Shown here in pieces: positions 14,783 to 45,270 of a stretch of DNA of 64,000 nucleotides (positions are counted from its first letter, which is position 1; each line of letters starts with the position of its first letter). The position numbers and the translations under genes are program-made. Source of the DNA: Bacteroidota bacterium (GTDB taxonomy: Bacteria > Bacteroidota > Bacteroidia > Bacteroidales > ML635J-15); NCBI GenBank assembly GCA_029564465.1, contig JAKQPY010000096.1, forward strand, positions 15,025-79,024, read 5' to 3'. Under the pieces are notes generated by a model. That model did no database searches, was not told where the DNA came from, and was given only the letters and a program-made list of their open reading frames with translations.

Positions 14783-15223
14783 ATGGCAATTACCCGTAAA
14801 GCAAGCGCCGTTTGGAACGGCACAGGAAAAGAAGGAAAAGGAATTTTAACCGCTACCAGCGGAGTTCTCAACGAAACCCCTTACTCGTTTGCAGCACGAT
14901 TTGTAAGCGAAGACGGAAAAGCAGGTACCAACCCCGAAGAACTCATTGCAGCAGCCCATGCAGGTTGTTTCGCAATGGCTCTCAGCTTTCAGTTAAACGG
15001 TGCCGGTTTTACAGCCGACGAATTGAAGGCGAAAGCTTCGGTGACGATGGACAATATTGACGGTCATTTTGAATTTACCGGAATTCACCTCGATCTGGAA
15101 GCCAGAATCCCCGGTATTTCACAGGAAAAATTCATGGAACTGGCCGAAGTTGCTAAAAAGAACTGTCCCGTTTCGTTGGCATTGGCGGCTGTAAAAATTA
15201 CGATGGATGCCAAACTGAAATAA
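14783..15223 (+). CDS. osmC: OsmC family peroxiredoxin
   Basis: 146 aa. The ELIAAAHAGCFAMAL and KNCPVS motifs carry the two conserved Cys of OsmC. Confidence 0.85.
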   Translation: MAITRKASAVWNGTGKEGKGILTATSGVLNETPYSFAARFVSEDGKAGTNPEELIAAAHAGCFAMALSFQLNGAGFTADELKAKASVTMDNIDGHFEFTGIHLDLEARIPGISQEKFMELAEVAKKNCPVSLALAAVKITMDAKLK

Positions 15224-24836: not shown

Positions 24837-25340
24837 TTACTCTATCTGCAGGCTTCGCAATACCATTTTCCTAGCATAATAAATCCGGCTTTTCACGGTG
24901 CCCATGGGTAATTGGTATCTTTCAGAAATTTCGCTGTATTTATAGCCTGAAATAAAATCGAAAAATGGCTCCCTGAATTTGCTGTCCAACCGGTTGATAC
25001 ATTGCACCACTTCCTTGTACAATAGCTGAGAATCGGGTGAAGGCTCGTAAGTGCAGGTATTGCTTACAATAGGCATCTTGTTGGAAACTGCCTCGGTAAG
25101 CACTTTTCGATATTGTACACTCCGACGGCGCTGGTTAATAAACTGGTGTTTCATAATCGTAAACAACCATGCCCGCAGACATGTGTCACTGGCAAGATTT
25201 CCTTTATAAGAAATAGCCTTGAGCATAGTGTCCTGGGTCAGGTCTTCGGCATCCTCCACATTTTCGGAAAGTGAAACAGCCCTGTCAATCAGCTGACCTC
25301 GTAAGTCAACAAGCTCGTTCTCGAATCCGGGAGTTCTCAT
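24837..25340 (-). CDS. ECF-type RNA polymerase sigma-70 family factor
   Basis: Region 2 (EDAEDLTQDTMLKA...WLFTIMKHQFINQRRR) and region 4 (YSEISERYQLPMGTVKSRIYYARK). The ATG at 25340 is preferred over 25397. No anti-sigma gene is adjacent. It is divergent from the hydrogenase cluster. Confidence 0.75.
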   Translation of the reverse strand: MRTPGFENELVDLRGQLIDRAVSLSENVEDAEDLTQDTMLKAISYKGNLASDTCLRAWLFTIMKHQFINQRRRSVQYRKVLTEAVSNKMPIVSNTCTYEPSPDSQLLYKEVVQCINRLDSKFREPFFDFISGYKYSEISERYQLPMGTVKSRIYYARKMVLRSLQIE

Positions 25341-25458
25341 GTGCTTACAATTTGTGGTTTCTATATCAAATATACAACGCACTGATTGCTTTCGCAAATA
25401 ATTTGTGTTTTAAAATATGCGTTGTTCACATTAAACTTATATTGTTATTGTTCTAACA

Positions 25459-25476
25459 TTGTTTTTTGTTTCACAA
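25459..25476 (+). promoter_or_regulatory. weak candidate Rex operator upstream of the hydrogenase cluster
   Basis: TTGTTTTTTGTTTCACAA compared with the Rex consensus TTGTGAA-N4-TTCACAA. The right half-site is perfect and the left half matches 4 of 7. It sits just upstream of the candidate -7 box. Confidence 0.2.
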
Positions 25477-25483
25477 ATATCAT

Positions 25484-25491
25484 TATCTTTG
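25484..25491 (+). promoter_or_regulatory. candidate -7 box (TAnnTTTG) for the hydrogenase cluster
   Basis: TATCTTTG lies 18 nt upstream of the ATG at 25509. A TTTG at 25465-25468 gives only a 15-nt spacer. Confidence 0.3.
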
Positions 25492-25508
25492 TAACTCAAT
25501 TATCAGTT

Positions 25509-25994
25509 ATGGGTTCCGCATTGGTGCAGGAAATAATTAGCGAAAAAAAAATCACCGACAAATCGGGACTGCTCATGCTGTTGCAGATATTGCAGGAACG
25601 GACAGGTGTGATTCAATATCATGATATTGTTGATATTTCGAAACAACTGGGCATAGCAGAAAGTAAAATATTCGGCATTGCCAGCTTTTACAATTACTTC
25701 CGATTTATCCCTAAAGGGAAATTTCACATCGAAATTTGTACGGGCACCTCTTGTTATCTTTGCGACTGCGAGAAGATGACAGCCGAACTTACACGGCTAA
25801 CCGGTCTCTCCAATGGAGAATTAAGTCGCGACGGACTAGTGTCGATAGAGCATACCGGATGTTTGGGGGGATGTTCGCAAGGTCCGGTTCTAAAAATCAA
25901 TGATAGTTTTTTTACACATGTTGATGTTGCGAAGCTCCGGAACCTTGTTTCTAAATTACAGTCGGGTGAGATGCCTGAAGAAATGAGCGTTTGA
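25509..25994 (+). CDS. NuoE/HydC-like thioredoxin-fold [2Fe-2S] subunit
   Basis: Cys pattern CTGTSC (Cx4C) ... CLGGC (Cx3C) with GPVLKIND, typical of NuoE/HndA. The ATG at 25509 was chosen. The ORF-track extension to 25386 is hydrophobic junk overlapping the divergent promoter. Confidence 0.85.
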   Translation: MGSALVQEIISEKKITDKSGLLMLLQILQERTGVIQYHDIVDISKQLGIAESKIFGIASFYNYFRFIPKGKFHIEICTGTSCYLCDCEKMTAELTRLTGLSNGELSRDGLVSIEHTGCLGGCSQGPVLKINDSFFTHVDVAKLRNLVSKLQSGEMPEEMSV

Positions 25995-25995
25995 A

Positions 25996-27858
25996 ATGAA
26001 TACACCGCTCGAAATAAACAAATCGAAAACAGCACCGTCACAGATATTTCTGCAAACGGGCACCTGTAGCATAGTTGCAGGTATAACCAAAACCAGGGAT
26101 GCATTTATTCAATACATCGAAAGTCATCAGATAGATGCCGACCTGATTGAGACCGGTTGTATGGGCATGTGTTCCAACGATCCGGTTGTCGATATTTTGA
26201 TTCCCGGAAGAAATAAAATCAGCTTTCGCAGGGTGATGCCATCGGATGTGGCTATTATATGCGACTGTATTTTCAATAATATTTTGCCGGAAAAAACCCA
26301 CATTCTGGGGCAGTACAAAAGCAACGACCGTTTTCCCTGGGAATTTGTTCCTTATATTGATGAACTCCCGTTTTTTGCGACACAAAAAAGAATACTTCTT
26401 TCCGGGATCGAAACAATCAGGCCCGATAGTGCCAGCGATTACGAAAGCCTTGGTGGTTTCACTGCCTTGCTCAAAGCCATCAGAACAATGACACCTGCAG
26501 CTGTCTGCAGCGAAATAGCCGAAAGTGGTCTGACCGGGCGCGGCGGCGGTGGATACAGCACTGGCAGTAAACTTCGGACGGTGTTGCAGCAGCATTCTTA
26601 CAAAAAATATTTGATATGCAATGCCGATGAAAGCGATCCGGGATCATTCTCGGGAAGATTACTCGTAGAAGCAAAACCTTTTTTACTCCTTGAGGGAATC
26701 ATCATTGCAGCCTATGCATCCGGGGCAAATCAGGCAATTATTTATATCCGCAACAAATACCGCTTATCTATTGATCGTTTGCAGCGTTGCATCCATCAGT
26801 TATATGAACTCAAGTGGCTGGGAGATGACATTTTAGACAGCGGAATAAACCTTCGGATCAGTATTTACGAAAGTCCGGGCGCCTTTGTTTGTGGCGAAGA
26901 AACAGCCCTGATTGAAAACCTTGAAGGGAACCGGGGGATGCCTCGTACCAAACCGCCTTATCCTGCCATCAGTGGCTTACATGGTATGCCTACCGTGGTA
27001 AACAATGTAGAGACACTGTGCAATATTCCTGCAATAATCAGCAATGGAGCCGCATGGTTTCGCAGCATTGGGAATAACAACACTACGGGAACCAAGTTAT
27101 TTTCTGTTTCAGGTAAAACCGAAATCGGGGGTGTAGTCGAGATCGAAATGGGCAGTACCATCAGACAGGTTATTGATGCATGTGGCGGACCTCAATCGCA
27201 TTCCGAAATAAAGGCAGTGCATCTGGGTGGACCGTCGGGAGGCTTGGTGCCTGTCGAAGACTTTGGGATTCCCCTAGACTACTATCATTTAGATAAACAA
27301 AAACTCTACCTGGGCTCGGGCAGCTTTGCCGTATTAGATCAGGAAAACTGTATTGTGAATACCTGCCGCTATTTTATGGAATTTATCGAGGGCGAAAGTT
27401 GTGGGAAATGTATTCCTTGCCGCGAAGGCTCACAGCGTATTACAGAAATCTTTAAAAGAATATCGAACAAACCCAACGATGCTGAGGAATTTGCCACACT
27501 ACTGCGTTTTAAGGGTGTGATGCAACTGGAACAGATGGCGGAAGTGATGCATGAAACATCATTGTGTGGTTTGGGTCAGCATGCGCCCAATGTGGTTACC
27601 ACTGCATTAAAACATTTCAGAGAAGAGTTTGAGGAGCATATTTTCGAGCGAAAATGCAGGGCAGGAGTATGTAAAAATCTTAAATCCTACTCGATAGACC
27701 ACACGGCATGCACCGGGTGTGGTATGTGTGCAAAACGCTGCCCTGCTGATGCAATTGCCGGTAGTTTGCGGCAAACACATTATATTATCAGCGAGCGCTG
27801 TATCGGATGCGGGATGTGTATGGAATCGTGTAAGTTTAACGCCGTTATTCTCAAATAA
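25996..27858 (+). CDS. NuoF/HydB-like NADH- and FMN-binding subunit with C-terminal 2x[4Fe-4S] ferredoxin domain
   Basis: GLTGRGGGGYSTGSK (FMN), CNADESDPGSF (NADH), ESCGKCIPCREG...LCGLGQ (N3-type 4Fe-4S), and C-terminal CTGCGMCAKRCP / CIGCGMCMESC. Confidence 0.9.
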   Translation: MNTPLEINKSKTAPSQIFLQTGTCSIVAGITKTRDAFIQYIESHQIDADLIETGCMGMCSNDPVVDILIPGRNKISFRRVMPSDVAIICDCIFNNILPEKTHILGQYKSNDRFPWEFVPYIDELPFFATQKRILLSGIETIRPDSASDYESLGGFTALLKAIRTMTPAAVCSEIAESGLTGRGGGGYSTGSKLRTVLQQHSYKKYLICNADESDPGSFSGRLLVEAKPFLLLEGIIIAAYASGANQAIIYIRNKYRLSIDRLQRCIHQLYELKWLGDDILDSGINLRISIYESPGAFVCGEETALIENLEGNRGMPRTKPPYPAISGLHGMPTVVNNVETLCNIPAIISNGAAWFRSIGNNNTTGTKLFSVSGKTEIGGVVEIEMGSTIRQVIDACGGPQSHSEIKAVHLGGPSGGLVPVEDFGIPLDYYHLDKQKLYLGSGSFAVLDQENCIVNTCRYFMEFIEGESCGKCIPCREGSQRITEIFKRISNKPNDAEEFATLLRFKGVMQLEQMAEVMHETSLCGLGQHAPNVVTTALKHFREEFEEHIFERKCRAGVCKNLKSYSIDHTACTGCGMCAKRCPADAIAGSLRQTHYIISERCIGCGMCMESCKFNAVILK

Positions 27859-27859
27859 G

Positions 27860-29515
27860 ATGCAAGTCGAAATTACAGTAAACCGTACTAAAATTCAGGC
27901 ACGCAAAGGCGAAACAATCCTGACGGCATTACAGCGTAACGGAATAAAAATACCAACCCTTTGCAATCTTCCTGAACTTACTCCCACAGGTGCCTGCCGG
28001 CTATGTGTGGTAGAGGATGAAGATACCCGGCATTTGATTCCAGCCTGCTCGACTCCGGTACAAACCGGAATGAAAATATTAACCCATTCACCCAAAGTAA
28101 TCAGAAGTCGCCAGACAATTATCGATTTACTCCTGACGAATCACCCGGACGATTGCCTTTACTGTGATAAAAACCGTCGTTGTGAGTTGCAGTCACTTTC
28201 CGAAGAACTTTATATAAGAGAAAGACTTTTTACCGGTGTTAAAAAGAAGGGTAAAACCGACCGTTCGAGTCAGGGCCTGGTATTCGACATGTCGAAGTGT
28301 ATTTTATGCGGACGCTGTGTAAAGGTATGCTCCGAAATTATAGGCGTTGCTGCCATAGACCATGTGTACCGTGGCAAGCGTTCGGTGGTAGATACCGTAT
28401 TGGGGAAAGGACTATATTATTCTTCCTGCATTCAATGCGGGCAATGCATCAACATTTGCCCGACAGGTGCCCTGCGCGAAAAATCGGCTATAGAACAAAT
28501 TGCTGCCAAAATTGGGCAGGAGTCTGTGAAAATATCGGTAATACTTTCGGCATCATCCGTGGCTTCGATAGCAGCCGTATTTGGAATCCGTAAGTTTGAA
28601 GAAATGACTGAAATGCTGGTGGCTGCTTTGAAAGACACCGGATTTTCTACAATAGTGACCGATAGCTTCGCATCCGATCTGTACTTTGCTGATGCCACAT
28701 CCCTGATTTGTGAGCGAATTGTGCAACCCGATTTTAAAATGGTAATTTCCGATTGCCCTGCTGCCATTCAATGGGTGAAGCAAAAACATCCTGAATTTGC
28801 CCATTTTTTGGTGCCTTTAAGATCACCACAGCAGATAACCGGTCGCATGTTAAAGCGGGAGACCAATGGTAGTAACAATATAGTGGTAGCCGTAATGCCA
28901 TGTATAGCACGTAAAACCGAAGCACTTCAACCCAATAACCTGACCCGCGGTTTGCCTGATATTGATTTTGTGGTTACCACACACGAATTACTTCATTTAC
29001 TCCGTACCCGCGGTGTGACCATGCCATTCCCCAAAAGATGCACCGTCGATAAACCATATAACATATACAGTTCTTGTTCTGTGTTGCACGAATATAATGG
29101 TGGTTTCGCTGAGTCTCTGGTCAGGAATCTGTTAAGTACGGAGGGGAAAAATTCTTTCGATAGTAAATATACCGAACTAAGGGTAAACAAACCTGTGAAA
29201 ACATTCGAAACCAGTATTTCGGGTCGCAACCTGAAGCTTGTTTCTCTTAATGGCATGCAGGCAATCAATGAGTATTTTTTGAAATATGTAACCGACAACA
29301 GTGTACATATAATCGAAATTTCGTCGTGCGTTGGAGGCTGTATCAACGGCAGCAGCCAGCTCGATAGTGAAGCAAGTATTTCGGGCAAGGTGTTACTCGA
29401 TTTCGAAAGTTCAGGTTTACTGCGTAATTCGGTGCAGAATGCCATAGTGAAAGGTATGAGTTCCGACAATGTGGTTAAGCCGATTACACGCTACGAATCA
29501 AATTCTGAATTGTGA
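27860..29515 (+). CDS. HydA-like protein: NuoG-type Fe-S N-terminus + [FeFe]-hydrogenase H-cluster domain with non-canonical motifs
   Basis: N-terminal plant-type 2Fe-2S (CNLPELTPTGACRLC), His-ligated cluster HPDDCLYCDKNRRCELQ, and 2x CxxCxxCxxxCP. H-domain motifs are SDCPAAIQW (28748-), MPCIARKTE (28895-28921) and EISSCVGGCINGSSQ (29315-29359). The ATG at 27860 is 1 nt after the nuoF-like stop. Confidence 0.8.
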   Translation: MQVEITVNRTKIQARKGETILTALQRNGIKIPTLCNLPELTPTGACRLCVVEDEDTRHLIPACSTPVQTGMKILTHSPKVIRSRQTIIDLLLTNHPDDCLYCDKNRRCELQSLSEELYIRERLFTGVKKKGKTDRSSQGLVFDMSKCILCGRCVKVCSEIIGVAAIDHVYRGKRSVVDTVLGKGLYYSSCIQCGQCINICPTGALREKSAIEQIAAKIGQESVKISVILSASSVASIAAVFGIRKFEEMTEMLVAALKDTGFSTIVTDSFASDLYFADATSLICERIVQPDFKMVISDCPAAIQWVKQKHPEFAHFLVPLRSPQQITGRMLKRETNGSNNIVVAVMPCIARKTEALQPNNLTRGLPDIDFVVTTHELLHLLRTRGVTMPFPKRCTVDKPYNIYSSCSVLHEYNGGFAESLVRNLLSTEGKNSFDSKYTELRVNKPVKTFETSISGRNLKLVSLNGMQAINEYFLKYVTDNSVHIIEISSCVGGCINGSSQLDSEASISGKVLLDFESSGLLRNSVQNAIVKGMSSDNVVKPITRYESNSEL

Positions 29516-31500
29516 TGGATCCAAAAAAAATAATATATACGGTCGAAGACCGATGTGAGGTTTGCTACAGTTGTGTGCGTGTTTGTCCAGCCAAGGCAAT
29601 CAGTATTAAAAACGGTCAGGCTCAAGTGATACACGAACGCTGTATTGCCTGTGGAAATTGTGTGAAAGTGTGTACCCGGGAAGCCAAGAGATTCAGGGAT
29701 TCAGCTGATGAACTGATTGAGATGCTCGGTGCGGGAGAATCAATAATTGCCTGTATCGCTCCCAGTTTCCCAGCCGAATTCAGAGAAGTTGCCGATTACA
29801 GATATGTTGTAGGTATGTTCCGTTCACTGGGATTCAGCAAGGTTGTTGAAGTTGCTTTTGGTGCCGATCTGGTAGCCAGGGAATATATTAAACTGCTTAA
29901 TGACCCCGACGGTAAAAAATTCATTTCTTCCGATTGTCCGGCAGTAGTAAACTATATTACCAAATATCACCCGCATCTTACCGAGAATCTGGCACCCATA
30001 GTATCGCCGGTGATGGCACTTGCCCGTGTTTTAAAAAAGGAATATGGTACAAAATATAAACTTGCTTTAATCAGTCCCTGTATTGCAAAGAAATCGGAAT
30101 CCAACGAAATTGATGTTGTTCTCACATTTAAAGAGATTCGCGAAGTATTCCGGATGAAAGGTATTGAGTACCAGCACTGTGAGCCTACGGAGTTTGATCC
30201 GCCGTTAAGTGGCCGTGGTGCCATTTTCCCTGTTTCGAGGGGCATCATTCAAACCATCAATGTTTCCGAAGATTATGTCGATGGGAATGTGGTGGTTGCC
30301 GATGGAAGGTTAAGTTTTAAAGAAGCCATCAATGAGTTCGACAATGGCCTGATTGCCGACCAGCATCTCGAGCTGCTTTGCTGCGAAGGTTGCATCATGG
30401 GGCCCGGAATGTCATCGCAGGGAAAGCCTTATCAAAGCCGGGCTTACGTAACCCGCTATGTAAAAGGCAAATTAAAAAACATCGACCGTAAGTATTGGAA
30501 AAGTCAGGTAAATAAGTACAAAACGCTCAATCTTCAACGCGAGTTTACTCCCGACGACTGCCGTGTAGTGTATCCTTCGCCCGATGAAATTATGAGCATT
30601 TGGAACTCGATGGGCAAAACCGAAGCCATCGACCGTCTCGATTGTCAGGCCTGTGGTTACGAATCGTGCAAAGAGCATGCCGTAGCCGTATTGCGAGGAC
30701 TGGCCGAAATCGACATGTGTTTACCTTATATGATAAAAAAACTTCACCAATCGATTGGTGAACTGAATTTAAAAAATCAAACCCTGGCTTCGGTGCAACA
30801 GGCATTAAAGCAAAGCGAAAAACTGGCCCATCTGGGGCAGTTGTCGGCAGGTATTGCCCATGAACTTAACAACCCGCTGGGTGTGGTAATTATGTACAGT
30901 AACATTCTTATTGACGAAGCAAAACCCGATGACCCACAGGTCGAAGACCTTAAAATGATTGCCGATCAGGCCTTACGCTGTAAAAACATTGTGGGCGGAT
31001 TATTGAATTTTGCACGTAAGAACAAATTGAAAGTCGATAATATCAATATAAGTTCATTAATCAATCGTTCACTGAAATCATTGGTAATACCGGATAATAT
31101 TAAGGTACATACTGCTTTTCAGCTCAAAAACGATCAGGCGGGTCTCGATGAAGAACAAATGATACAGGCATTAACAAATATTATTAAGAACGCTATTGAA
31201 GCCATGCCCGATGGGGGAAGCCTTAATGTCACGGTAAGCGACCGAAATGATATCATTAAAATTGATATTGCAGATACCGGAACAGGCATTGAACAGGAGC
31301 ACATGGATAAAATATTTACGCCGTTTTTTACCACCAAAGGACTTGGAAAAGGAACCGGACTGGGTATGCCTACCACTTACGGTATCATTAAAATGCATAA
31401 TGGGAAAATACACATCGAAACCAATGCAGATGCTGAAAGAGGTAATACCGGAACCACTTTTAGTATCGAAATTCCACGCTATAATAACCAAGTAAGTTGA
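29515..31500 (+). CDS. sensory-type [FeFe]-hydrogenase domain fused to a histidine kinase (HydS-like::HisKA-HATPase)
   Basis: 2x[4Fe-4S] (CEVCYSCVRVCP, CIACGNCVKVCT). H-domain motifs are SSDCPAVVNY, SPCIAKKSE and LLCCEGCIMGPG. Cx2Cx4C...C motif CQACGYESC...MC (30643-30720). Coiled coil, H-box AHELNNPL (His codon at 30859), N/G1/F/G2 boxes. Start is ATG 29515 (TGATG overlap) or GTG 29512. Confidence 0.8.
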   Translation: MDPKKIIYTVEDRCEVCYSCVRVCPAKAISIKNGQAQVIHERCIACGNCVKVCTREAKRFRDSADELIEMLGAGESIIACIAPSFPAEFREVADYRYVVGMFRSLGFSKVVEVAFGADLVAREYIKLLNDPDGKKFISSDCPAVVNYITKYHPHLTENLAPIVSPVMALARVLKKEYGTKYKLALISPCIAKKSESNEIDVVLTFKEIREVFRMKGIEYQHCEPTEFDPPLSGRGAIFPVSRGIIQTINVSEDYVDGNVVVADGRLSFKEAINEFDNGLIADQHLELLCCEGCIMGPGMSSQGKPYQSRAYVTRYVKGKLKNIDRKYWKSQVNKYKTLNLQREFTPDDCRVVYPSPDEIMSIWNSMGKTEAIDRLDCQACGYESCKEHAVAVLRGLAEIDMCLPYMIKKLHQSIGELNLKNQTLASVQQALKQSEKLAHLGQLSAGIAHELNNPLGVVIMYSNILIDEAKPDDPQVEDLKMIADQALRCKNIVGGLLNFARKNKLKVDNINISSLINRSLKSLVIPDNIKVHTAFQLKNDQAGLDEEQMIQALTNIIKNAIEAMPDGGSLNVTVSDRNDIIKIDIADTGTGIEQEHMDKIFTPFFTTKGLGKGTGLGMPTTYGIIKMHNGKIHIETNADAERGNTGTTFSIEIPRYNNQVS

Positions 31501-31501
31501 T

Positions 31502-31885
31502 ATGAAAACCCACACGATTCTCATTGCCGACGATGACTACGATTACCTTTATCAGATGTGTTATCACATAGAAGATGCAGGTTTTACTGTAATTAAGGCC
31601 AATAGTCAGGCAGAAGCAGAAGCCGTAATTGGTGAGCTAAAACCCGACCTTGCCCTTTTCGACTTAATGATGGAAAACCATGATAGCGGTTTTGTACTTG
31701 CCTATAAGATGAAAAAAACATATCCCGATGTGCCGGTAATTATTGCTACGGCTGTTGCCGGTGAGACCGGACTGAATTTCGGGAACGGAAATCAGGGAGG
31801 CTGGGTTAAAGCCGACAAATACCTTGAAAAAGGAACCAGTCCACAGGTAATCATCGAAATTATTAAACAAATGCTCGGAATATAA
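31502..31885 (+). CDS. single-domain response regulator (REC only)
   Basis: 127 aa. ILIADDD ... DLALFDLMM (acceptor Asp) ... PVIIATA ... K. No output domain. Confidence 0.85.
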   Translation: MKTHTILIADDDYDYLYQMCYHIEDAGFTVIKANSQAEAEAVIGELKPDLALFDLMMENHDSGFVLAYKMKKTYPDVPVIIATAVAGETGLNFGNGNQGGWVKADKYLEKGTSPQVIIEIIKQMLGI

Positions 31886-31886
31886 T

Positions 31887-33005
31887 ATGGAAAACCTGAA
31901 AATTCTTGTTGTTGACGACGAACCCGGCATTCGCATGGGTGTACACAGGGTACTCGATAAATTTGTGGTTGACTATCCCTTTATGGACGACTCCATAGGT
32001 TTTGATGTTGACGATGCCTCAACCGGTGAAGAAGCGCTCGAAAAATTGAACGCTGTTACTTACGACATAGTCTATCTCGACAATAAATTGCCGGGAATTC
32101 AGGGAATCGAAGTGCTCGAACATCTCAACAAGGCAAATCCTGCCACCAAGGTTATCATGATTACATCGTATGCCTCACTTGAGCTGGCTGTGCAGGCTAC
32201 CAAAATGGGAGCCCATGATTTTGTTCCAAAACCCTTCACACCACAGGATCTGCGCTCTTCTGCCGAGAATGTGACCAAACAGATATTCCTGAAAAGAATG
32301 ATGCAGAAAATGTATAAGGAAGGGAAACAAATCCGTTTCCAATTCTTGTCATTGTTGTCGCACGAATTGAAAGCCCCTTTGAATGCCATTGAGGGATATC
32401 TGAAAATAATGATTGAACAGAAAGAAGGTAAAGACATAGCCTCTTACGACAAAATGATCAGGCGTTCGCTTGACCGTGTTAAAGATATGCGCTCGCTTAT
32501 TTTTGATCTGCTCGACCTTACAAAGATTGAATCAGGTGAACTGGCAAAGAAAACCGAAGATCTCAATCTTTGTGAAGTATTGAAAAACTCGCTTTCGTCG
32601 ATTCAACCCATGGCAATACAAAAGGACATTACACTGGGTTGCAACCTGAGCTACCCGGTTATTTACAAAGCCGACCCGCGTGATATGGAAATCGTCTTCA
32701 ACAACCTGTTGTCGAATGCAGTAAAATACAATCGCCAGAATGGCTCAATTTCGTGCGCCGTATCCGACACAAGTACGCAAATTGAAGTCAGTATTTCCGA
32801 CACGGGTATTGGTATGACACCCGAAGAAATCGACAGAGTTTTCGGGGAATTTGTCAGAATTAAAAACGAAAACACACGCAATATTCCGGGAAGTGGCCTG
32901 GGATTGGCTATTGTTAAAAAAATTCTTGACAGTTATAACGCCTCCATCAGGGTGCAAAGCACTCCGGGCGAAGGCTCTGTATTTACAGTTACATTTAACA
33001 AATAA
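31887..33005 (+). CDS. hybrid REC-histidine kinase (N-terminal receiver, C-terminal HisKA + HATPase_c)
   Basis: ILVVDDEPGIR ... VYLDNKLPG ... FVPKPF (REC). H-box SHELKAPLN, N-box LLSNAVKYN, G-boxes DTGIGM / GSGLGL. Confidence 0.85.
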   Translation: MENLKILVVDDEPGIRMGVHRVLDKFVVDYPFMDDSIGFDVDDASTGEEALEKLNAVTYDIVYLDNKLPGIQGIEVLEHLNKANPATKVIMITSYASLELAVQATKMGAHDFVPKPFTPQDLRSSAENVTKQIFLKRMMQKMYKEGKQIRFQFLSLLSHELKAPLNAIEGYLKIMIEQKEGKDIASYDKMIRRSLDRVKDMRSLIFDLLDLTKIESGELAKKTEDLNLCEVLKNSLSSIQPMAIQKDITLGCNLSYPVIYKADPRDMEIVFNNLLSNAVKYNRQNGSISCAVSDTSTQIEVSISDTGIGMTPEEIDRVFGEFVRIKNENTRNIPGSGLGLAIVKKILDSYNASIRVQSTPGEGSVFTVTFNK

Positions 33006-33010
33006 TAACT

Positions 33011-33631
33011 ATGTTACCTGAAAAAACCACCGAACGTTTGAGCCAGTATCGCCGTCTGCTTCAGAACCTGTCGGACGAGGGGAAGGAATATATTTTTTCG
33101 CACGAAATTGCATTGATGTTGCACCTGACTCCCGTTCAGGTCCGTCGCGACATTATGCTTATCGGATATAACGGTTCACAACGAAAAGGCTATATCATTC
33201 ACGATCTGATTCAAAAACTCAGTCAGGTACTTGACTCGGAACAGTGTCAAAATGCTGCCGTTTTTGGGGTGGGTAATCTGGGCAAGGCGATTACCAGCTA
33301 TTTCAATGGCAAAGGTCATAATATTAATATTGTGGCTGCTTTCGACAGTGACCCGCAAAAAACCGACAGAATTATCTCGGGCGTTTGGTGTTACGATATT
33401 AAGCAAATAAAAGAGATTGTTAGCGAGAATAATATTTCGCTGGCCATTCTTACTCTGCCACCCCAATATGCCCAGGACATTACCGATAAGCTGGTTTATG
33501 CGGGAATTCGCGGAATACTCAATTTTACCAGTGTTCCACTAAGGGTGTCGCCCGATGTATATGTCGAAAATTACGACATGGTTACATCGCTCGAAAAACT
33601 GGCATACTATGTTAAAGAAATAAATCGTTAA
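33011..33631 (+). CDS. rex: redox-sensing transcriptional repressor Rex
   Basis: 206 aa. N-terminal winged helix (RLSQYRRLL...VQVRRDI..IGY) and a Rossmann fold (VFGVGNLGKAI...AAFDSDP...ILNFT), characteristic of Rex. Confidence 0.85.
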   Translation: MLPEKTTERLSQYRRLLQNLSDEGKEYIFSHEIALMLHLTPVQVRRDIMLIGYNGSQRKGYIIHDLIQKLSQVLDSEQCQNAAVFGVGNLGKAITSYFNGKGHNINIVAAFDSDPQKTDRIISGVWCYDIKQIKEIVSENNISLAILTLPPQYAQDITDKLVYAGIRGILNFTSVPLRVSPDVYVENYDMVTSLEKLAYYVKEINR

Positions 33632-33639
33632 GATATAGC

Positions 33640-34539
33640 ATGAAAGTACATTATAACTTCGATGATTTTGGAACAATCAAAAATCCAGTCGTTACCACGG
33701 GTTCTTTTGATGGCGTTCATACCGGGCACCGCGTGATAATTCAGCGCATTAATTTTTTGGCAAAAGCCATCGATGGCGAATCTGTTCTCATTACATTTTA
33801 CCCGCATCCACGTAAAATATTGTTTCCGAACGAGACTCAGGGCTTGTTCATGATTAACACACCGGACGAAAAAGAATACTTATTGTCGAATACAGGTCTA
33901 GATCACTTGTTTATTATCAACTTTACCATTGAGTTTTCGAAAACCCCATCCGAAGTTTTTGTCAAGGATATATTACTCGCAAAACTGGGTGCAAAAATTA
34001 TCGTGGTTGGGTTTAATCACCATTTCGGACATAATCGTCAGGGCGATTACCAGTACTTGTATCAACTAAGCAAGGTGGCAAACTTCAGGGTTGAAGAAAT
34101 TCCGCAACAGGATATCGAAAACGAAGCTGTAAGTTCAACCCGTATCCGTAAAGCCATACTCGAAGGGAAAATTGGCAGGGCCAACGCCTATCTGAATCAT
34201 CCGTTTTTCTTCATTACGCAACACCTGAAAGCGAGGAAAGCAGTGTTCGAAAATTTTTTACAATATACTGTTACCGATTTATTGCCGGAAAAAATTCTTC
34301 CTCCCTCTGGTAGGTATGCGGGTAAACTATTAAATGTCAATGGAATAACATATATTTTGTGTGATATTTTTGCTAACAGGTTATACTTTTACCTGAATGG
34401 TGATTTTGCTGATTCCGACATGAATAAGGGCATTATAGAACTGCATATGCAAATAAGAACATTTACTGATGAAGAAGATTTAAACATTTACGATAGCTTT
34501 ATGCCGGATGTTGTGTTTTTATCGGAATTGATTTATTAA
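33640..34539 (+). CDS. ribF: RibF-like FAD synthetase (FMN adenylyltransferase domain intact; riboflavin-kinase domain apparently degenerate)
   Basis: N-terminal motifs GSFDGVHTGH, TFYPHPR, VVGFNHHFG and SSTRIRK are present. In the C-terminal domain the expected G(R)xxGFPTAN reads KARKAVFENFLQ. Confidence 0.7.
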   Translation: MKVHYNFDDFGTIKNPVVTTGSFDGVHTGHRVIIQRINFLAKAIDGESVLITFYPHPRKILFPNETQGLFMINTPDEKEYLLSNTGLDHLFIINFTIEFSKTPSEVFVKDILLAKLGAKIIVVGFNHHFGHNRQGDYQYLYQLSKVANFRVEEIPQQDIENEAVSSTRIRKAILEGKIGRANAYLNHPFFFITQHLKARKAVFENFLQYTVTDLLPEKILPPSGRYAGKLLNVNGITYILCDIFANRLYFYLNGDFADSDMNKGIIELHMQIRTFTDEEDLNIYDSFMPDVVFLSELIY

Positions 34540-34570
34540 TATTGAGGTCTAATTTAAAAAAAAGCGAAGT

Positions 34571-35884
34571 ATGAAAGTTGTTATGATAGGTACCGGTTAT
34601 GTGGGTTTGGTTTCGGGAACCTGCTTTGCCGAGATGGGTGTACATACTGTTTGTGTTGACATTGATACAGTGAAAATCGAGAACCTGAAAAAAGGCATTA
34701 TCCCCATTTGGGAGCCCGGTCTCGAAGATATGTTAAAACGTAATTTTGAGAGTGGCAGACTGAGCTTCTCGACAAGTATTGCCGAAAGCATCAGCGGGGC
34801 TGACGCCTGTTTCATTGCTGTGGGAACTCCTCCTGACGAAGATGGCAGCGCTGATCTTCAATACGTTCTGGCTGTCGCCCGCGAAATTGGGAAAAACATT
34901 TCCGACTATCTGGTGGTAGTAACCAAAAGTACAGTTCCTATCGGAACATCCGAAAAAGTAAGAACCGCTGTTCAGGAGGAGATAAGCCTGCGGGGTTTAA
35001 GCATTAGTTTCGATGTGGCCAGTAATCCTGAATTTCTGAAGGAAGGCGATGCCATCGATGATTGTATGCACCCCGACAGAATTGTTATCGGTACCGATTC
35101 CGAAAGGGCACAGGAATTGCTGAACCGTCTTTACAAACCTTTTGTTTTGAATGGCCACCCCATCATTTTCATGGATATTCCCTCGGCTGAGATAACCAAA
35201 TATACGGCCAATGCCATGTTGGCTACGAAAATCAGTTTCATGAATGATATTGCCAACTTCTGTGAACTGGTGGGTGCTGATATTAACGCTGTGAGAAAAG
35301 GAATCGGCAGCGACAGACGAATAGGACAGTACTTTATTTATGCCGGAACGGGTTATGGGGGTTCCTGTTTCCCAAAAGATGTAAAAGCAATCATTAAAAC
35401 AGCTGATAGCAAAGGTTATTCGCTCGAAATTCTCAAAGCGGTGGAGGATGTTAACGACCGGCAGAAATCGAGATTGTACCAAAAAGCCATGCAATACTTT
35501 GGGAATAATCTGCAGGGAAAGAAAATTGCGCTCTGGGGACTTTCGTTCAAACCCAACACCGACGATATGCGTGAAGCTCCGGCGCTGGTTCTGATACAAC
35601 TTCTGGTGAAAGCCGGATGCAAGGTAGTCGCTTACGACCCCGTAGCCATCGAAGAAACCAAACGTAGAATTGGCAACATTATAGAGTATGTCGAAAATCC
35701 ATACGATGCAATTGTTGATGCTGATGCTCTTTTCTTAGTTACCGAATGGACGGAATTCAGGGTGCTGAACTACGAAAAAATGAAAACAATGCGTCATAAA
35801 ATTATTTTTGACGGCAGAAACATATACGACCCCAAAGAATTGCATGCCCATGGGTTTGAATACTTTGGAATCGGACGAAAATAA
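34571..35884 (+). CDS. ugd: UDP-glucose 6-dehydrogenase
   Basis: MIGTGYVGLVSGTCFAEMG (NAD fold), catalytic GGSCFPKDV, and the C-terminal UDP-binding domain. Confidence 0.9.
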   Translation: MKVVMIGTGYVGLVSGTCFAEMGVHTVCVDIDTVKIENLKKGIIPIWEPGLEDMLKRNFESGRLSFSTSIAESISGADACFIAVGTPPDEDGSADLQYVLAVAREIGKNISDYLVVVTKSTVPIGTSEKVRTAVQEEISLRGLSISFDVASNPEFLKEGDAIDDCMHPDRIVIGTDSERAQELLNRLYKPFVLNGHPIIFMDIPSAEITKYTANAMLATKISFMNDIANFCELVGADINAVRKGIGSDRRIGQYFIYAGTGYGGSCFPKDVKAIIKTADSKGYSLEILKAVEDVNDRQKSRLYQKAMQYFGNNLQGKKIALWGLSFKPNTDDMREAPALVLIQLLVKAGCKVVAYDPVAIEETKRRIGNIIEYVENPYDAIVDADALFLVTEWTEFRVLNYEKMKTMRHKIIFDGRNIYDPKELHAHGFEYFGIGRK

Positions 35885-35893
35885 CATCCTTAC

Positions 35894-36145
35894 ATGGAAA
35901 AAACAGTAGAAATAACCATTTGCCTTGGCAGCTCATGCTTTAGTCGCGGTAACAAAGAAATGGTGAGTGTGATTCAGGACTATCTCGAGGAACACAAACT
36001 CAAGGAACAGGTCAAATTTAAAGGTGGCCACTGCTTTGGTAATTGCAGCAATGGACCGGTAATAAAAATAAATGGTCAGCCCTATTATGGGGTTTCCAAA
36101 ATCGGTATTACCGATATTCTGAACCAGGCGTTTAACCTCGAATAA
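35894..36145 (+). CDS. small thioredoxin-like [2Fe-2S] ferredoxin (NuoE-fold, HfsA-like position)
   Basis: 83 aa. CLGSSC (Cx4C) ... CFGNC (Cx3C) ... GPVIKING. It lies 9 bp after ugd and 11 bp before the H-domain-PAS gene. Confidence 0.7.
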   Translation: MEKTVEITICLGSSCFSRGNKEMVSVIQDYLEEHKLKEQVKFKGGHCFGNCSNGPVIKINGQPYYGVSKIGITDILNQAFNLE

Positions 36146-36156
36146 ACCAACGGCAA

Positions 36157-37989
36157 ATGGAATTGATACAATTCGACAAATCGAAATGCACCCTCTGCTA
36201 TGCTTGCGTGAGAGCCTGTCCTGTGCGGGCCATTCATGTAAACAACGAAAATAACGGGGTTTCGATTATTCACGACCGGTGCATTGGTTGCGGCAATTGC
36301 TACACCAATTGTGCCTCGAAGGCAATTTTGTATTACGGTAGTATAAACGAAACACAAGCTTTACTAGCAAAATACACCTGCATGGCCATTGTTGATCCTT
36401 GTATTGCCGCCGAATTTCCTGATGTCACCGACTACCGGAATTTTGTGGGGATGATTAAAGCCATTGGGTTCCGCTATGTTTGTGAAATTTCGTATGGCGC
36501 AGGATTGGTTGCCGATGAGTATAAAACCCATTTCGAGAATTTTCGCGGGAAATATCATATCACCTCGGCATGCACACCTGTGGTTGAATATGTAAGAAAA
36601 TATCAGCCCGGGTTAATAGACAGCCTGATTCCTGTATTAACCCCCATGCTCGCAACTGCTAAAGCATGTCGTGCCATTTATGGCAACGATATTAGAATAA
36701 TTGCTATCACTCCCTGCATCGGGCAAAAACTGGAAGCGCACGAGTTCAATGGTTTAGTACATTCTGTGCTTACTTTTGAGGAATTACGTGAGTTGTTTTC
36801 ACAAAAAGATATTGCCGAAAACTCGGTTGAATTTTCGGAGTTCGACCCGCCCTATGGAGGAAAAGGTTCACTTTTTCCTATCAGTACCGGTCTGCTGGAG
36901 GCAGGCAATATTGCCACCGAGGCGGGAGTCAATCGTATTATAACCCGTGACGGTCCCGATGAGTTTCGTGACAATATTGACGACTTCTCGCGTATAGCAG
37001 CCGTAAAGCACCATTTGAATGCTTACTTCTGCAAAGGCTGTTGTACCGGTCCATGTACTTCGGCCAAACGATCGTATCTGCAAAACCACAGCCTGGTAGT
37101 CGATTTTACAATGAAGCGGGTGGCATTTTGTAACGAAAACCAACCCGATACACTGGCGAATATTCAGCTGAACCGTAGCTTTACTGCTGACGACCAGCGC
37201 TTGCCAATGCCCGATCCGGCCCGGGTTCAGGAGATACTCAAAATGTTGGGGCGTGATATGAACGACAACCACGGTTGCCAGTCGTGCGGATATAAAAGCT
37301 GTACAGAGTTTGCTGTTCATGTGGCTAAAGGCCTTGCCAAGCCTGAACTCTGCGTTACCTATACCCTCCGCAACAGCCAGGAGTTCATAAAACAGCTTAC
37401 CATCACCAATAAAAAACTTGCCGAAACCCAAAAAGCGCTCGAAATTTCGGAACGCAAACTCAGGCAGGATCATAGTGTGGTAAAAGAAACCATGAACTTA
37501 CTGGAAGCCATTATGCAAAAACTGCCTTCTGGGGTTGTGCTGGCCGACAAAAACCTGAAAATCATTCAGTCGAACGAAAAATTCATTCAGATTATTGGCC
37601 GCGAAGCCGAAGAAATCAACGAGATTGTACCCGGGCTTACAGGTGCCGACCTAAAAACGATATTACCTCAGTCGGTATATACCCTTTTTGGTTATGTGCT
37701 GGGCAACAATCAGCCGGTCGAAAACAAAGATATCAGCTACGATGATAAACTCCTTAATGTATCGGTGTTTCCGATAAAAAAAGGTGAAATTGCCGGAGCA
37801 ATATTCCGCGACCTGTATCAGCCCGAGGTTCGCCGCGAAGAAGTGATTAACCGGGTAAACGAAGTCATTGAGAAAAACCTGCAGATGGTTCAGCAAATTG
37901 GCTTCCTGCTTGGAGAAGGTGCTTCCGAAACAGAACGCATGCTCAACAGTATTATAGAATCGTATCAAAAAAGCAACCGGCAGCCATAA
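36157..37989 (+). CDS. sensory [FeFe]-hydrogenase-like protein with C-terminal PAS domain (HydS/HfsB type)
   Basis: 2x[4Fe-4S] (CTLCYACVRACP, CIGCGNCYTNC). H-domain motifs are TSACTP (36562-36579), TPCIGQKLE (36709-36735) and FCKGCCTGPC (37030-37056). CQSCGYKSC...LC (37276-37353), coiled coil, then PAS (LPSGVVLADKNLKIIQSNEKF...). Confidence 0.8.
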   Translation: MELIQFDKSKCTLCYACVRACPVRAIHVNNENNGVSIIHDRCIGCGNCYTNCASKAILYYGSINETQALLAKYTCMAIVDPCIAAEFPDVTDYRNFVGMIKAIGFRYVCEISYGAGLVADEYKTHFENFRGKYHITSACTPVVEYVRKYQPGLIDSLIPVLTPMLATAKACRAIYGNDIRIIAITPCIGQKLEAHEFNGLVHSVLTFEELRELFSQKDIAENSVEFSEFDPPYGGKGSLFPISTGLLEAGNIATEAGVNRIITRDGPDEFRDNIDDFSRIAAVKHHLNAYFCKGCCTGPCTSAKRSYLQNHSLVVDFTMKRVAFCNENQPDTLANIQLNRSFTADDQRLPMPDPARVQEILKMLGRDMNDNHGCQSCGYKSCTEFAVHVAKGLAKPELCVTYTLRNSQEFIKQLTITNKKLAETQKALEISERKLRQDHSVVKETMNLLEAIMQKLPSGVVLADKNLKIIQSNEKFIQIIGREAEEINEIVPGLTGADLKTILPQSVYTLFGYVLGNNQPVENKDISYDDKLLNVSVFPIKKGEIAGAIFRDLYQPEVRREEVINRVNEVIEKNLQMVQQIGFLLGEGASETERMLNSIIESYQKSNRQP

Positions 37990-37992
37990 ACC

Positions 37993-39177
37993 ATGCACAA
38001 CGACTTTTTCATAGAAATTGATGCCCGACAGATAAACCATCAGGGTCAAAAAATCTGCGGAGATGTGTTCATGAAGCGTCGTATCAAAGAGGAGAACCGT
38101 TTTATTGTGGTGTTGAGCGATGGCATGGGACATGGTGTAAAAGCCAATATCCTTGCAAGCCTTACGGCAACCATGGCCATGAATTTTACCATTGAGCACC
38201 GCGATCCGGGACGAATTGCCGAAATCATCATGAAAACCCTGCCGGTGTGTAAGGAACGGAAAATTGCCTATGCCACCTTTACCATAATTGATGTTACTAC
38301 GCACGATAAGGTTCAGATTATTGAGTACGACAACCCGCATGTTATGGCTTTTCGTGACGGAAAGCCCATGCAGCTCGACTGGCACGAAATTGAATTATCG
38401 AAATACGCCCAACACGACAAAAAGCTGTTCACTACAGGTTTTTATCCTCACCTGGGCGACAGGCTTATTCTGGTTTCCGATGGGGTAGCCCAGTCGGGCA
38501 TGGGTTCCGAAACATTCCCATTTGGCTGGGGTGTCGATAAAATTACGAACTATGTAGCTGGGCTGATTGAGGCCGATCACAATATTTCGGCAGCCCGTTT
38601 GTCCGAAAAAATTGTCAACCGCTCAGTACTGAACGATGGCTATAAATCGAAAGACGATACCAGCTGTGCTTCGCTCTACTTCAGAGAACCCCGGAAATTG
38701 CTGCTGGTGACCGGTCCACCCTTCGAAGCCTCCTATGATGCGCGTTTGGCGACCATAATCAGAGAACACAGCGGAAAAAAAGTGGTTTGCGGGGGTACCA
38801 CCACCGATATCGTTTCGCGTGAACTGGGGGTGGAGGTTACCGACAGCCTCGACTTTTACGACAAGGAGCTTCCTCCGGTAGCTTATATGCCGGGTATCGA
38901 CCTTGTTACCGAAGGTATACTCACCCTGAATAAGGTAAACCGCCTGTTACGTGATTTCGACAGCGACTACCTGACGGGCAAAGGTCCTGCCGACCAGATT
39001 GTAAAAATGTTTCACGAAAGCGACCGTATCGATTTCGTGGTGGGTACCAAGGTTAACGAAGCCCATCAGGATCCAAATGTTCCCGTGGACCTCGAAATAC
39101 GGCGTACCATCATAAACCGTATCGCACGTTTACTCGACGAAAAATTTCTGAAAGAAGTAAGCATCTCTTATTTGTAA
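37993..39177 (+). CDS. PP2C/SpoIIE-family serine phosphatase with extra C-terminal domain
   Basis: GDVF...VVLSDGMGHGVKA...LILVSDGV...DDTS metal-binding pattern of SpoIIE/PP2C in the first roughly 225 aa. The remaining roughly 170 aa contain no motif I recognise. Confidence 0.8.
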   Translation: MHNDFFIEIDARQINHQGQKICGDVFMKRRIKEENRFIVVLSDGMGHGVKANILASLTATMAMNFTIEHRDPGRIAEIIMKTLPVCKERKIAYATFTIIDVTTHDKVQIIEYDNPHVMAFRDGKPMQLDWHEIELSKYAQHDKKLFTTGFYPHLGDRLILVSDGVAQSGMGSETFPFGWGVDKITNYVAGLIEADHNISAARLSEKIVNRSVLNDGYKSKDDTSCASLYFREPRKLLLVTGPPFEASYDARLATIIREHSGKKVVCGGTTTDIVSRELGVEVTDSLDFYDKELPPVAYMPGIDLVTEGILTLNKVNRLLRDFDSDYLTGKGPADQIVKMFHESDRIDFVVGTKVNEAHQDPNVPVDLEIRRTIINRIARLLDEKFLKEVSISYL

Positions 39178-39256
39178 GTAGTTTTGCTTTTTTGCTGAAG
39201 ATTTACCAACCGGGAATACCAAAGCGTATTCTATTTTGAAAGTCATTCACGAAATA

Positions 39257-39308
39257 CCCCGACTCCGCTGCGATAACCTGTAAAAGTGGTCGCCGGGCGG
39301 AGGCGGGG
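39257..39308. other. GC-rich long hairpin between convergent genes
   Basis: CCCCGACTCCGC (39257-39268) pairs with GCGGAGGCGGGG (39297-39308) with 1 mismatch. The intervening 28 nt can also pair (GCGA...TCGC). No T-run follows. Confidence 0.5.
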
Positions 39309-39366
39309 TGTCCAAACAATATTCAATCAGAATTTATTTTGGCAAGGTGCAACCACACCTGTCCAA

Positions 39367-45036: not shown

Positions 45037-45270
45037 CCTTCACTTAACTTGAATCATTTCTAGAATAGGTAACCCGTCCTCACAAATTTAGATATTAATT
45101 CTTACTAAAAAAGTCAAGCTTTCCTTTTTGTTTCCATAAAATAATAAAATTAACAGTTCATTAAAATTACCAATTTTATGAAAAAGATGTAGTTTTTTGA
45201 AAATCATTACATTATATTCGCACATGGCTTGAACCAAAGTGAAAAAAAATTGTTTGACAAAAAACTTAGT

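Follow-up and report, generated by a model that had tools for sequence, protein, structure and literature searches.

In a 64,000-nucleotide stretch of DNA from a Bacteroidota bacterium (hereafter the window; positions 15,025 to 79,024 of contig JAKQPY010000096.1, assembly GCA_029564465.1, Bacteroidales lineage ML635J-15), we examined a cluster of 12 co-directional plus-strand genes at 25509-39177, here called g01 to g12, that combines an NADH-linked hydrogenase-type trimer with two putative sensory [FeFe]-hydrogenases and the redox-sensing repressor Rex. In the open reading frame (ORF) listing, intergenic distances range from -1 to 31 bp, with successive gaps from g01 to g12 of 1, 1, -1, 1, 1, 5, 8, 31, 9, 11, and 3 bp, and direct reading of the sequence places the g03/g04 stop/start overlap, TGATG, at 29513-29517. 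A preliminary description of this DNA had reported the same 12 tightly spaced genes and the same overlap, and both hold. Its starting position, 25341, falls outside the cluster, in the divergent sigma-factor gene/intergenic region.

Three modules, each also found apart in relatives, make up the cluster. The first consists of g01 (25509-25994), a NuoE/HydC-like thioredoxin-like [2Fe-2S] subunit (Pfam PF01257, E=6e-37, residues 7-150); g02 (25996-27858), a NuoF/HydB-type flavin mononucleotide (FMN)/NADH subunit with Complex1_51K, NADH_4Fe-4S, and two Fer4 domains; and g03 (27860-29515), a HydA-like protein with a NuoG-type N terminus and an H-domain (Fer2_4, NADH-G_4Fe-4S_3, Fer4, and Fe_hyd_lg_C). 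The second comprises g04 (29515-31500), a group C1-like putative H2 sensor with Fer4, Fe_hyd_lg_C, FeS, HisKA, and HATPase_c domains; g05 (31502-31885), a stand-alone receiver (REC) protein (Pfam PF00072); and g06 (31887-33005), a hybrid kinase in which Pfam recognizes REC, HisKA, and HATPase_c and which lacks a DNA-binding domain. The third is a trio of g10 (35894-36145), an 83-aa thioredoxin-like [2Fe-2S] protein (Pfam PF01257, E=3e-10); g11 (36157-37989), a group C3-like putative sensor with Fer4, Fe_hyd_lg_C, FeS, and weak PAS matches; and g12 (37993-39177), identified by Pfam as a PP2C/SpoIIE-type Ser/Thr phosphatase, with a Rossmann-like C-terminal domain. Between the last two modules lie g07 (33011-33631), which encodes Rex (Pfam Put_DNA-bind_N and CoA_binding), g08 (33640-34539), a flavin adenine dinucleotide (FAD) synthetase (FMN adenylyltransferase) domain protein (FAD_syn), and g09 (34571-35884), ugd, an NAD+-dependent UDP-glucose 6-dehydrogenase. 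Pfam and NCBIfam thus reproduce every domain call of the preliminary description, with the qualifications that g08 carries only the FAD-synthetase half, the PAS matches of g11 stay below the cut-offs, and g03 fails the curated hydrogenase thresholds.

Predicted Rex operator and candidate transcript boundaries

The 111-bp region preceding g01 contains a tandem Rex-box-like operator on the plus strand at 25442-25476, composed of two 18-bp palindromes, TTGTTATTGTTCTAACAT at 25442-25459 and TTGTTTTTTGTTTCACAA at 25459-25476, which overlap by the one base they have in common. Directly downstream, at 25484-25491 on the plus strand and 18 nt before the g01 ATG, is a Bacteroidota-type -7 promoter box, TAnnTTTG (TATCTTTG). 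TAnnTTTG is the known -7 motif of Bacteroides promoters, and the Rex operator is TTGTGAAnnnnTTCACAA, with a clostridial variant TTGTTAAnnnnTTAACAA. The classical consensus alone was rejected as evidence, since a search of the whole window at up to three mismatches gave counts near expectation (7 matches to TTGTGAAnnnnTTCACAA against 6.4 expected, and 11 to the TTGTTAA variant against 8.6), which are uninformative until orthologous promoters are compared.

For that comparison we used loci from a synteny survey (designated L001 onward), which took one genome per species and drew its query patterns from the kinase half of the kinase-fused sensor; 51 of the 80 loci proved to be unrelated kinases, and in the other 29 the kinase-fused H-domain protein is complete or nearly so (two are cut by contig ends). 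An abutting palindrome pair precedes the first gene in seven orthologous loci (L001, L003, L005, L007, L008, L009, and L012), and in L001, L003, L005, L008, and L009 a TAnnTTTG box comes next. A 35-nt position weight matrix built from these seven loci, with the window excluded, has its top score in the 64-kb window at 25442-25476 (27.4 bits; best unrelated site, 5.9 bits), a score that none of 200 shuffles reached (highest, 18.2 bits). A Rex box with at least 12 of 14 matches occurs between -400 and +150 relative to the first gene in 13 of the 19 loci that have rex and in none of the 5 that lack it. Because the operator is conserved and tracks the presence of rex across loci, there is good comparative evidence for a predicted Rex operator at the cluster promoter and for Rex gating of the unit, in line with the Rex control proposed in the preliminary description.

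The g07 product itself scores 206 bits against the NCBIfam Rex model NF003995 (cut-off, 126), and five Rex models in all exceed their own cut-offs. The arrangement resembles the Rex regulons of anaerobes in having a Rex above the curated cut-offs and palindromes that are alike in spacing and half-sites and overlap a hydrogenase-operon promoter. It differs in having two abutting boxes with one common base, in the position of rex within the operon, and in its lineage, the Bacteroidales, for which our literature search found no described Rex regulon; that search returned nothing on these loci, or on a Rex operator, in Bacteroidota. Both Rex and HydS have been proposed as regulators of trimeric hydrogenases (PMC10084766).

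In Bacteroidales, rex lies downstream, with the FAD-synthetase gene next in nearly all cases, and this pair follows the REC-kinase gene in most loci, whereas in other phyla rex lies upstream. The C-terminal ~110 aa of g08 have no flavokinase match in Pfam or NCBIfam. Its counterpart in the cultured species Tenuifilum thalassicum has both FAD-synthetase and flavokinase domains. Among the loci compared, ugd occupies the g09 position only in the window, L001, and L082, and in L082 it follows the rex-FAD synthetase pair but has no sensor trio behind it. UDP-glucose 6-dehydrogenase yields 2 NADH per turnover, and g09 may be either a passenger or a Rex-co-regulated NADH source.

On the plus strand, no terminator-like site occurs in any intergenic gap within the cluster. 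After g12, a 153-nt segment of the convergent intergenic region has a folding energy of -49 kcal/mol (z=-3.8) that none of 200 shuffles matched, and its 3' stem-loop, a long GC-rich hairpin at 39254-39311 (plus strand) without a T-run, is a candidate end of the transcription unit, presumably acting as a terminator. Rfam and tRNA scans gave no match within the cluster, including no FMN or other riboswitch, and a sigma-70 promoter scan was set aside as not applicable to Bacteroidota.

The atypical HydA-like subunit of the trimer

Among the smaller subunits of the trimer, g01 is placed by its Pfam match, with all NCBIfam NuoE models below their cut-offs. The other, g02, is of the Bfu type with a C-terminal 2x[4Fe-4S] domain and matches over most of its length HydB of Thermoanaerobacter kivui (8a6t_B), Acetobacterium woodii (7q4v_B), and Thermotoga maritima (7p5h_B), and also 7t2r_B (E values from 1e-139 to 1e-150), which makes its assignment as a predicted Bfu/HydB-type subunit convincing. 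Together they follow the HydDB rule for group A3, in which NuoE- and NuoF-type subunits adjoin the catalytic subunit (PMC5037454). The trimer is like the A3 HydABC enzymes of T. maritima (7p5h), T. kivui (8a6t), and A. woodii (7q4v) in its three subunits, its Bfu-type NuoF with a C-terminal ferredoxin domain, and the NuoG-like N terminus of g03.

The likeness ends at the H-cluster pocket. The best Protein Data Bank (PDB) match of g03 is T. kivui HydA1 (8a6t_A, E=1e-94), but it fails both curated models, scoring 412 bits against a cut-off of 765 for the A6 model (NF040763) and 226 against 406 for group A (TIGR02512). Its L1 motif reads ISDCPAA for TSCCPxW, its L2 motif MPCIARKTE for MPCxxKxxE, and its L3 motif EISSCVGGCING (EISSCVGGC) for ExMxCxxGCxxG. 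Relative to T. kivui HydA1, these and other changes amount to C299D, K358R, M497S, E279A, and E282L, plus Ala and Glu in place of the group A residues P231 and G418. The group A proton pathway C299-E279-S319-E282-R286 accordingly reads D299, A279, S319, L282, R286. The four H-cluster Cys ligands are retained, as are M353, S319, Q325, and E361. No small-subunit-like domain (Fe_hyd_SSU) was matched in g03 or its clade. The preliminary description had taken the adjacent hydrogenase as the enzyme presumably regulated here; judged by its remodeled pocket, g03 is not a canonical A3 bifurcating hydrogenase.

This pocket is shared by relatives. The 22 closest g03 clusters (542-559 aa) form a clade in which 20 have Asp at position 299, while position 358 is Arg, His, Leu, or Tyr and position 497 is Ser, Thr, or Arg. 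Since residues are conserved within subclades, the pattern looks like selection for a different pocket and not like decay. In CaHydA, Asp is the only replacement of C298 that retains turnover (PMC3485046), and the prevalence of Asp299, together with this property of Asp, argues for selection on proton delivery to the [2Fe] site. In our view, g03 probably remains a hydrogenase in which the proton path and the cofactor environment have changed.

The main alternative is that g03 is a pseudo-hydrogenase that keeps its Fe-S clusters, so that the trimer would be an NADH/ferredoxin oxidoreductase or a redox-sensing scaffold, possibly one docking the kinase sensor, and the locus would regulate something besides its own hydrogenase. 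The scores far under both hydrogenase cut-offs fit this idea, as do the replacement of K358, M497, P231, G418, E279, and E282, the lack of Fe_hyd_SSU in the clade, and the naming of identical proteins by NCBI only as "(2Fe-2S)-binding protein" or "H-domain-containing protein". Moreover, g03 diverges faster than g04 (in L001, 50% identity compared with 65% for g04; in the closest relative, 61% compared with 77%). Set against these points are the retained cysteines, M353, S319, Q325, and E361, the Asp at 299 in nearly the whole clade with its known compatibility with turnover, the conservative nature of the Lys-to-Arg change, and the fact that the residues are conserved by subclade and are not random. 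On balance, we regard a pseudo-hydrogenase as possible but unlikely.

The g03 clade is small when clustered at 50% identity. Loss of K358, which also speaks for that alternative, extends well beyond it: among the nearest NuoG-fused H-domain representatives at 50% identity (P0370-P0516), 47 of 117 (~40%) lack Lys358 and 41% lack Cys299. Because so many near representatives lack K358, atypical HydA-like proteins appear to be numerous and under-described, and the sequences point to a large radiation of them. A further reading, which we find distinctly improbable, is that g03 represents an undescribed Bacteroidales-restricted subgroup that, with NuoE/NuoF, the kinase sensor, and Rex, forms a device comparing NADH, ferredoxin, and H2 and is not a bulk H2 producer. 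The subgroup pocket would then be defined by the replacement of Cys299 by Asp, of Lys358 by Arg or His, of Met497 by Ser, Thr, or Arg, and of Gly418 by Glu, and by the absence of the E279/E282 relay. If this were true, the locus would be a three-input redox signaling machine, and the pocket would hold the first natural Asp proton relay in an [FeFe] site.

We also considered whether the divergent HydA is always paired with Rex and the phosphatase-linked trio. This was refuted by T. thalassicum, in which a near-canonical HydA (SSCCP, K358, M497) accompanies Rex and both sensors. Separately, HydA orthologues in non-Bacteroidota loci with the kinase-linked trimer (L011, L013-L017, L019-L021, and L025-L028) have TSCSP for TSCCP. 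There the [4Fe-4S]H ligand position C300 is aligned as Ser and C299 is kept, so that the alignment register may have shifted or L1 may have a conserved variant form.

Putative sensor branches linked to a kinase and a phosphatase

Both g04 and g11 have an N-terminal 2x[4Fe-4S] region followed by an H-domain in which none of the H-cluster cysteines (C300, C355, C499, and C503) is missing. After the H-domain, each has an exact Cx2Cx4Cx16C motif (CQACGYESCKEHAVAVLRGLAEIDMC in g04 and CQSCGYKSCTEFAVHVAKGLAKPELC in g11), and Pfam FeS (PF04060) matches both. This C-terminal motif is a feature of putative sensory group C enzymes (PMC8163306), in which, moreover, C299 is not conserved and M353 is replaced by Gly, Ser, or Thr (PMC10055695). 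The corresponding residues are D299, S353, K358, and L497 in g04 and A299, T353, Q358, and Y497 in g11, and position 353 is Gly in most orthologues. Among the three H-domain proteins, these two are the closest pair of paralogues (33-37% identity); identity to g03 is only ~25% for both. In g04, HisKA (E=4e-13) and HATPase_c (E=3e-22) lie on the same polypeptide as the H-domain, as in histidine kinase-linked C1 enzymes, and g12 starts 3 bp after g11, giving the H-domain/PAS plus Ser/Thr phosphatase arrangement of C3, with a weak PAS. These labels follow from architecture and the definitions in PMC5037454. With g04 C1-like and g11 C3-like, the assignment of the two to kinase-linked and phosphatase-linked subtypes of putative sensory group C, made in the preliminary description, is supported.

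For the kinase-linked branch, the nearest precedent is in groundwater Elusimicrobia, where a trimeric group A hydrogenase adjoins a kinase HATPase-fused group C enzyme and Rex is nearby (10.1101/765248). As there, a HisKA/HATPase-fused H-domain protein directly follows NuoE-NuoF-HydA in the window, Rex is nearby, and REC and REC-kinase partners are conserved. The window differs in having Rex downstream with an FAD-synthetase-like gene next, Asp at position 299, a non-canonical HydA, and a second, phosphatase-linked sensor added. Other genome papers also place C1 genes beside kinases or bifurcation subunits (PMC8542988, PMC6163223). From our literature search and the putative label in HydDB, no C1 member has apparently been characterized biochemically. 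K358 is kept in all 29 full-length g04 orthologues (L030 aligns only in the kinase part), the g05 REC gene directly follows the kinase in most full-length loci across phyla, and g06 is a conserved partner across phyla. The parts of the His-Asp phosphorelay postulated in the preliminary description are present; its proposed action on the adjacent enzyme is less secure, since the cluster encodes no DNA-binding output. The logic of a slow hydrogenase acting through a histidine kinase on hydrogenase expression recalls the group 2b [NiFe] system HoxBC-HoxJ-HoxA of Cupriavidus, but the metal site and protein family are unrelated, and the DNA-binding regulator HoxA has no counterpart in the cluster.

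The phosphatase-linked branch is closest to the HydS/HfsB-HfsC units of Firmicutes and Thermotoga, which are of C3 type and include the studied TmHydS. The g11 protein is alike in its 2x[4Fe-4S] region, H-domain, Cx2Cx4Cx16C motif, and PAS-like region (E values from 8e-4 to 3e-3, below the Pfam cut-offs), and a PP2C gene directly follows it. Ala takes the place of C299, as in TmHydS, and position 353 has a small hydroxyl residue instead of Met. The differences are that the window unit opens with a thioredoxin-like [2Fe-2S] gene and not with HfsA, that no catalytic HfsD/HydA2-type hydrogenase follows the trio, that the PP2C protein has an additional conserved Rossmann-like domain, that the host belongs to Bacteroidota, and that K358 is Gln. 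Whereas TmHydS is reported to conserve the cofactor H-bonding residues, K358 included (PMC10055695), this position in g11 orthologues is I, A, S, N, or Q, and C499 is replaced by Asp in two of them. Among loci that have the HydS(PAS) gene, a g10-type gene precedes it in 7 of 8 (L001, L005, L008, L009, L024, L081, and L084).

The g12 protein (model pLDDT, 87.7; best folds, 3pu9, SpoIIE, and RsbU) combines a catalytic domain that is RsbX-like by sequence with a C-terminal 165-aa Rossmann-like domain (38680-39177, plus strand) that is strongly conserved, with invariant TGPP, GG.T, TEGILT, GPAD, and AHQDP motifs. This domain has no match in Pfam, NCBIfam, or PDB sequences, and fold searches with the full model and the isolated domain returned only PP2C or generic Rossmann-like folds (TM <=0.5, E >=8e-4). 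Homologues of g12, in more than 100 Bacteroidota clusters, are nearly always 394 aa long with the C-terminal domain attached.

Would these two proteins sense H2 at all? They could instead sense the cellular ferredoxin/NADH pool through their Fe-S chains or be low-rate catalytic hydrogenases. HydDB calls the sensory role of group C putative (PMC5037454), a metabolic role has been raised for C1 genes beside bifurcation subunits (PMC8542988), the lack of K358 in g11 and its orthologues, two of which also lack C499, leaves cofactor binding by this PAS-type protein less certain, and the dedicated [2Fe-2S] partner g10 suggests electron exchange. In the other direction, the complete HisKA/HATPase fusion and the tight pairing with REC or PP2C recur across many phyla, the activity of TmHydS and TamHydS is low and their properties resemble those of sensors (PMC8163306, PMC10055695), the phenotypes of hfsB deletion are regulatory (PMC5707799), and hfsABCD genetics in Firmicutes indicates that the PAS-HydS/PP2C unit behaves as a regulator (PMC5707799, PMC11837493). 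We therefore give a non-sensory or general redox role for g04 and g11 little credence.

Distribution and the regulatory reading

The NuoE-NuoF-HydA-HK-REC-REC/HK order (HK, histidine kinase) occurs in Bacteroidota, Hydrogenedentes, Verrucomicrobiota, Desulfobacterota, Acidobacteriota, Planctomycetota, and Actinomycetota, and the second module is found behind the trimer in at least eight phyla. The full 12-gene order, whose conservation the preliminary description had proposed to check, is identical in one metagenome-assembled genome (L001), at 35-75% protein identity. The top 120 clusters are all taken up by g04 and g12 homologues (54-80% identity), with nearly all of the named ones from Bacteroidales, Tenuifilaceae, or other Bacteroidota, and in cultured T. 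thalassicum (L081; CP041345, 1.955-1.977 Mb) a single locus holds the trimer, Rex, and both sensors. At the genome level, the earlier statement that no such case is known in Bacteroidota, with the uniqueness it implied, thus does not survive L001, T. thalassicum, the more than 100 homologue clusters, and the Elusimicrobia precedent.

The trio is a mobile part of the cluster. It is divergently adjacent to the trimer locus in L005, L008, L009, L012 (where no thioredoxin-like ORF was detected), L024, and T. thalassicum, and in one genome of 3.94 Mb it is found by itself, with 570 kb between it and the trimer/kinase/Rex locus. Being co-directional, divergent, or unlinked in different relatives, the trio is an autonomous unit, commonly though not invariably beside the trimer locus, and its co-directional placement behind ugd is specific to the window's lineage. 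Of the single operon put forward earlier, the tight co-directional run stands, while the inclusion of the trio is a lineage-specific arrangement of a unit that is independent in relatives. It is very improbable that separate units (the trimer with the two-component genes, the rex-ribF-like pair, ugd, and the trio), each with its own promoter, came to lie side by side by chance and share no logic: the divergent or unlinked trio, the presence of ugd in few lineages, and TAnnTTTG motifs within upstream coding regions (e.g., 35803-35810) would fit it, but gaps of at most 9 bp at the module joints, save one of 31 bp, leave no room for intergenic promoters, no terminators lie between the genes, L001 keeps the identical order at such low protein identity, at least six further genomes keep the trio beside the trimer locus despite changes of orientation, and presence of the Rex operator is correlated with presence of rex at a locus.

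We favor, with moderate confidence, the reading of this cluster as a Rex-gated redox/H2 regulatory operon in which an NADH-linked hydrogenase-type complex is joined to two H2/redox signaling branches. At low NADH/NAD+, Rex would occupy the tandem operator and repress the whole unit, rex included; a rise in NADH would release it. The trimer, once made, would couple NADH, probably together with reduced ferredoxin, to H+/H2, and two slow sensor-type H-clusters would report H2. Through g04, the signal would pass by His autophosphorylation into a multi-step His-Asp relay whose final target is not encoded in the cluster, and through g11, it would lead to PAS-controlled Ser/Thr dephosphorylation of some phosphoprotein. 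The functional reading in the preliminary description was similar and is largely supported, gaining strength from the operator; its claims that the arrangement is unique and that Bacteroidota lack it find no support.

Several observations weigh against this Rex-gated operon. The absence from g03 of K358, M497, P231, G418, E279, E282, and the small-subunit-like domain makes binding of the [2Fe] subcluster uncertain, and Gln at position 358 of g11, along with the replacement of C499 in two of its orthologues, bears similarly on that protein. Each Rex box of the window alone has 2-3 mismatches and is not significant singly. Because the trio is separately transcribed or unlinked in relatives, its co-transcription in the window is only putative. 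No DNA-binding output for the His-Asp relay is encoded in the cluster, and no substrate of the g12 phosphatase was identified within it. As the preliminary description had noted, HydE, HydF, and HydG are missing from the window: no radical S-adenosylmethionine (SAM) or HydF-like gene was found among the scanned window ORFs of at least 150 aa, and the ORFs outside that scan, two of 1484 and 1177 aa and a few of 150-184 aa, all have the wrong size for these maturases. Apart from the operon itself, the layout is not rare, and its parts list is shared with many related genomes, which weakens any claim of uniqueness.

To our knowledge, H2 signal transmission by [FeFe] sensory hydrogenases is unproven in any organism. 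The locus places a kinase-fused sensor, which would offer a direct read-out as autophosphorylation with and without H2, beside a phosphatase-linked sensor and a promoter predicted to be under Rex control. The comparisons add a defined candidate Rex operator for Bacteroidales, a cultured model in T. thalassicum, and a natural Asp-for-Cys299 pocket variant. Beyond what had been described before, they reveal a conserved tandem operator, a modular and mobile phosphatase-linked trio, and a non-canonical HydA pocket. The cluster is of value as a clearly delimited system for tests and for drawing attention to an atypical HydA clade, not as a new kind of system.

Some neighboring genes deserve mention. 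In T. thalassicum, a TM1266-like gene and a 475-aa HydG-like radical-SAM/BATS gene lie directly downstream of rex-ribF (L081 15382-17135), so at least one maturase-like gene is linked to that locus, unlike in the window. A gene for an extracytoplasmic function (ECF)-type sigma factor (24837-25397, minus strand; Pfam Sigma70_r2/r4_2) is the divergent neighbor of the cluster and shares with it the operator-containing intergenic region. This neighbor is kept in L083 (51% identity), L001 (41%), and L082 (40%), and no anti-sigma gene lies beside it. It could be Rex regulated or a target of the PP2C phosphatase, its association with the cluster being uncertain. Elsewhere in the window are PorP/SprF and OmpA genes in a type IX secretion system context, 2-oxoglutarate dehydrogenase E1 and E2 genes (45229-49180, plus strand), and a urocanase gene (51280-53292, minus strand). 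The 2-oxoglutarate dehydrogenase and urocanase would be unexpected in an H2 producer that lives by fermentation alone, a hint that the metabolism is more versatile.

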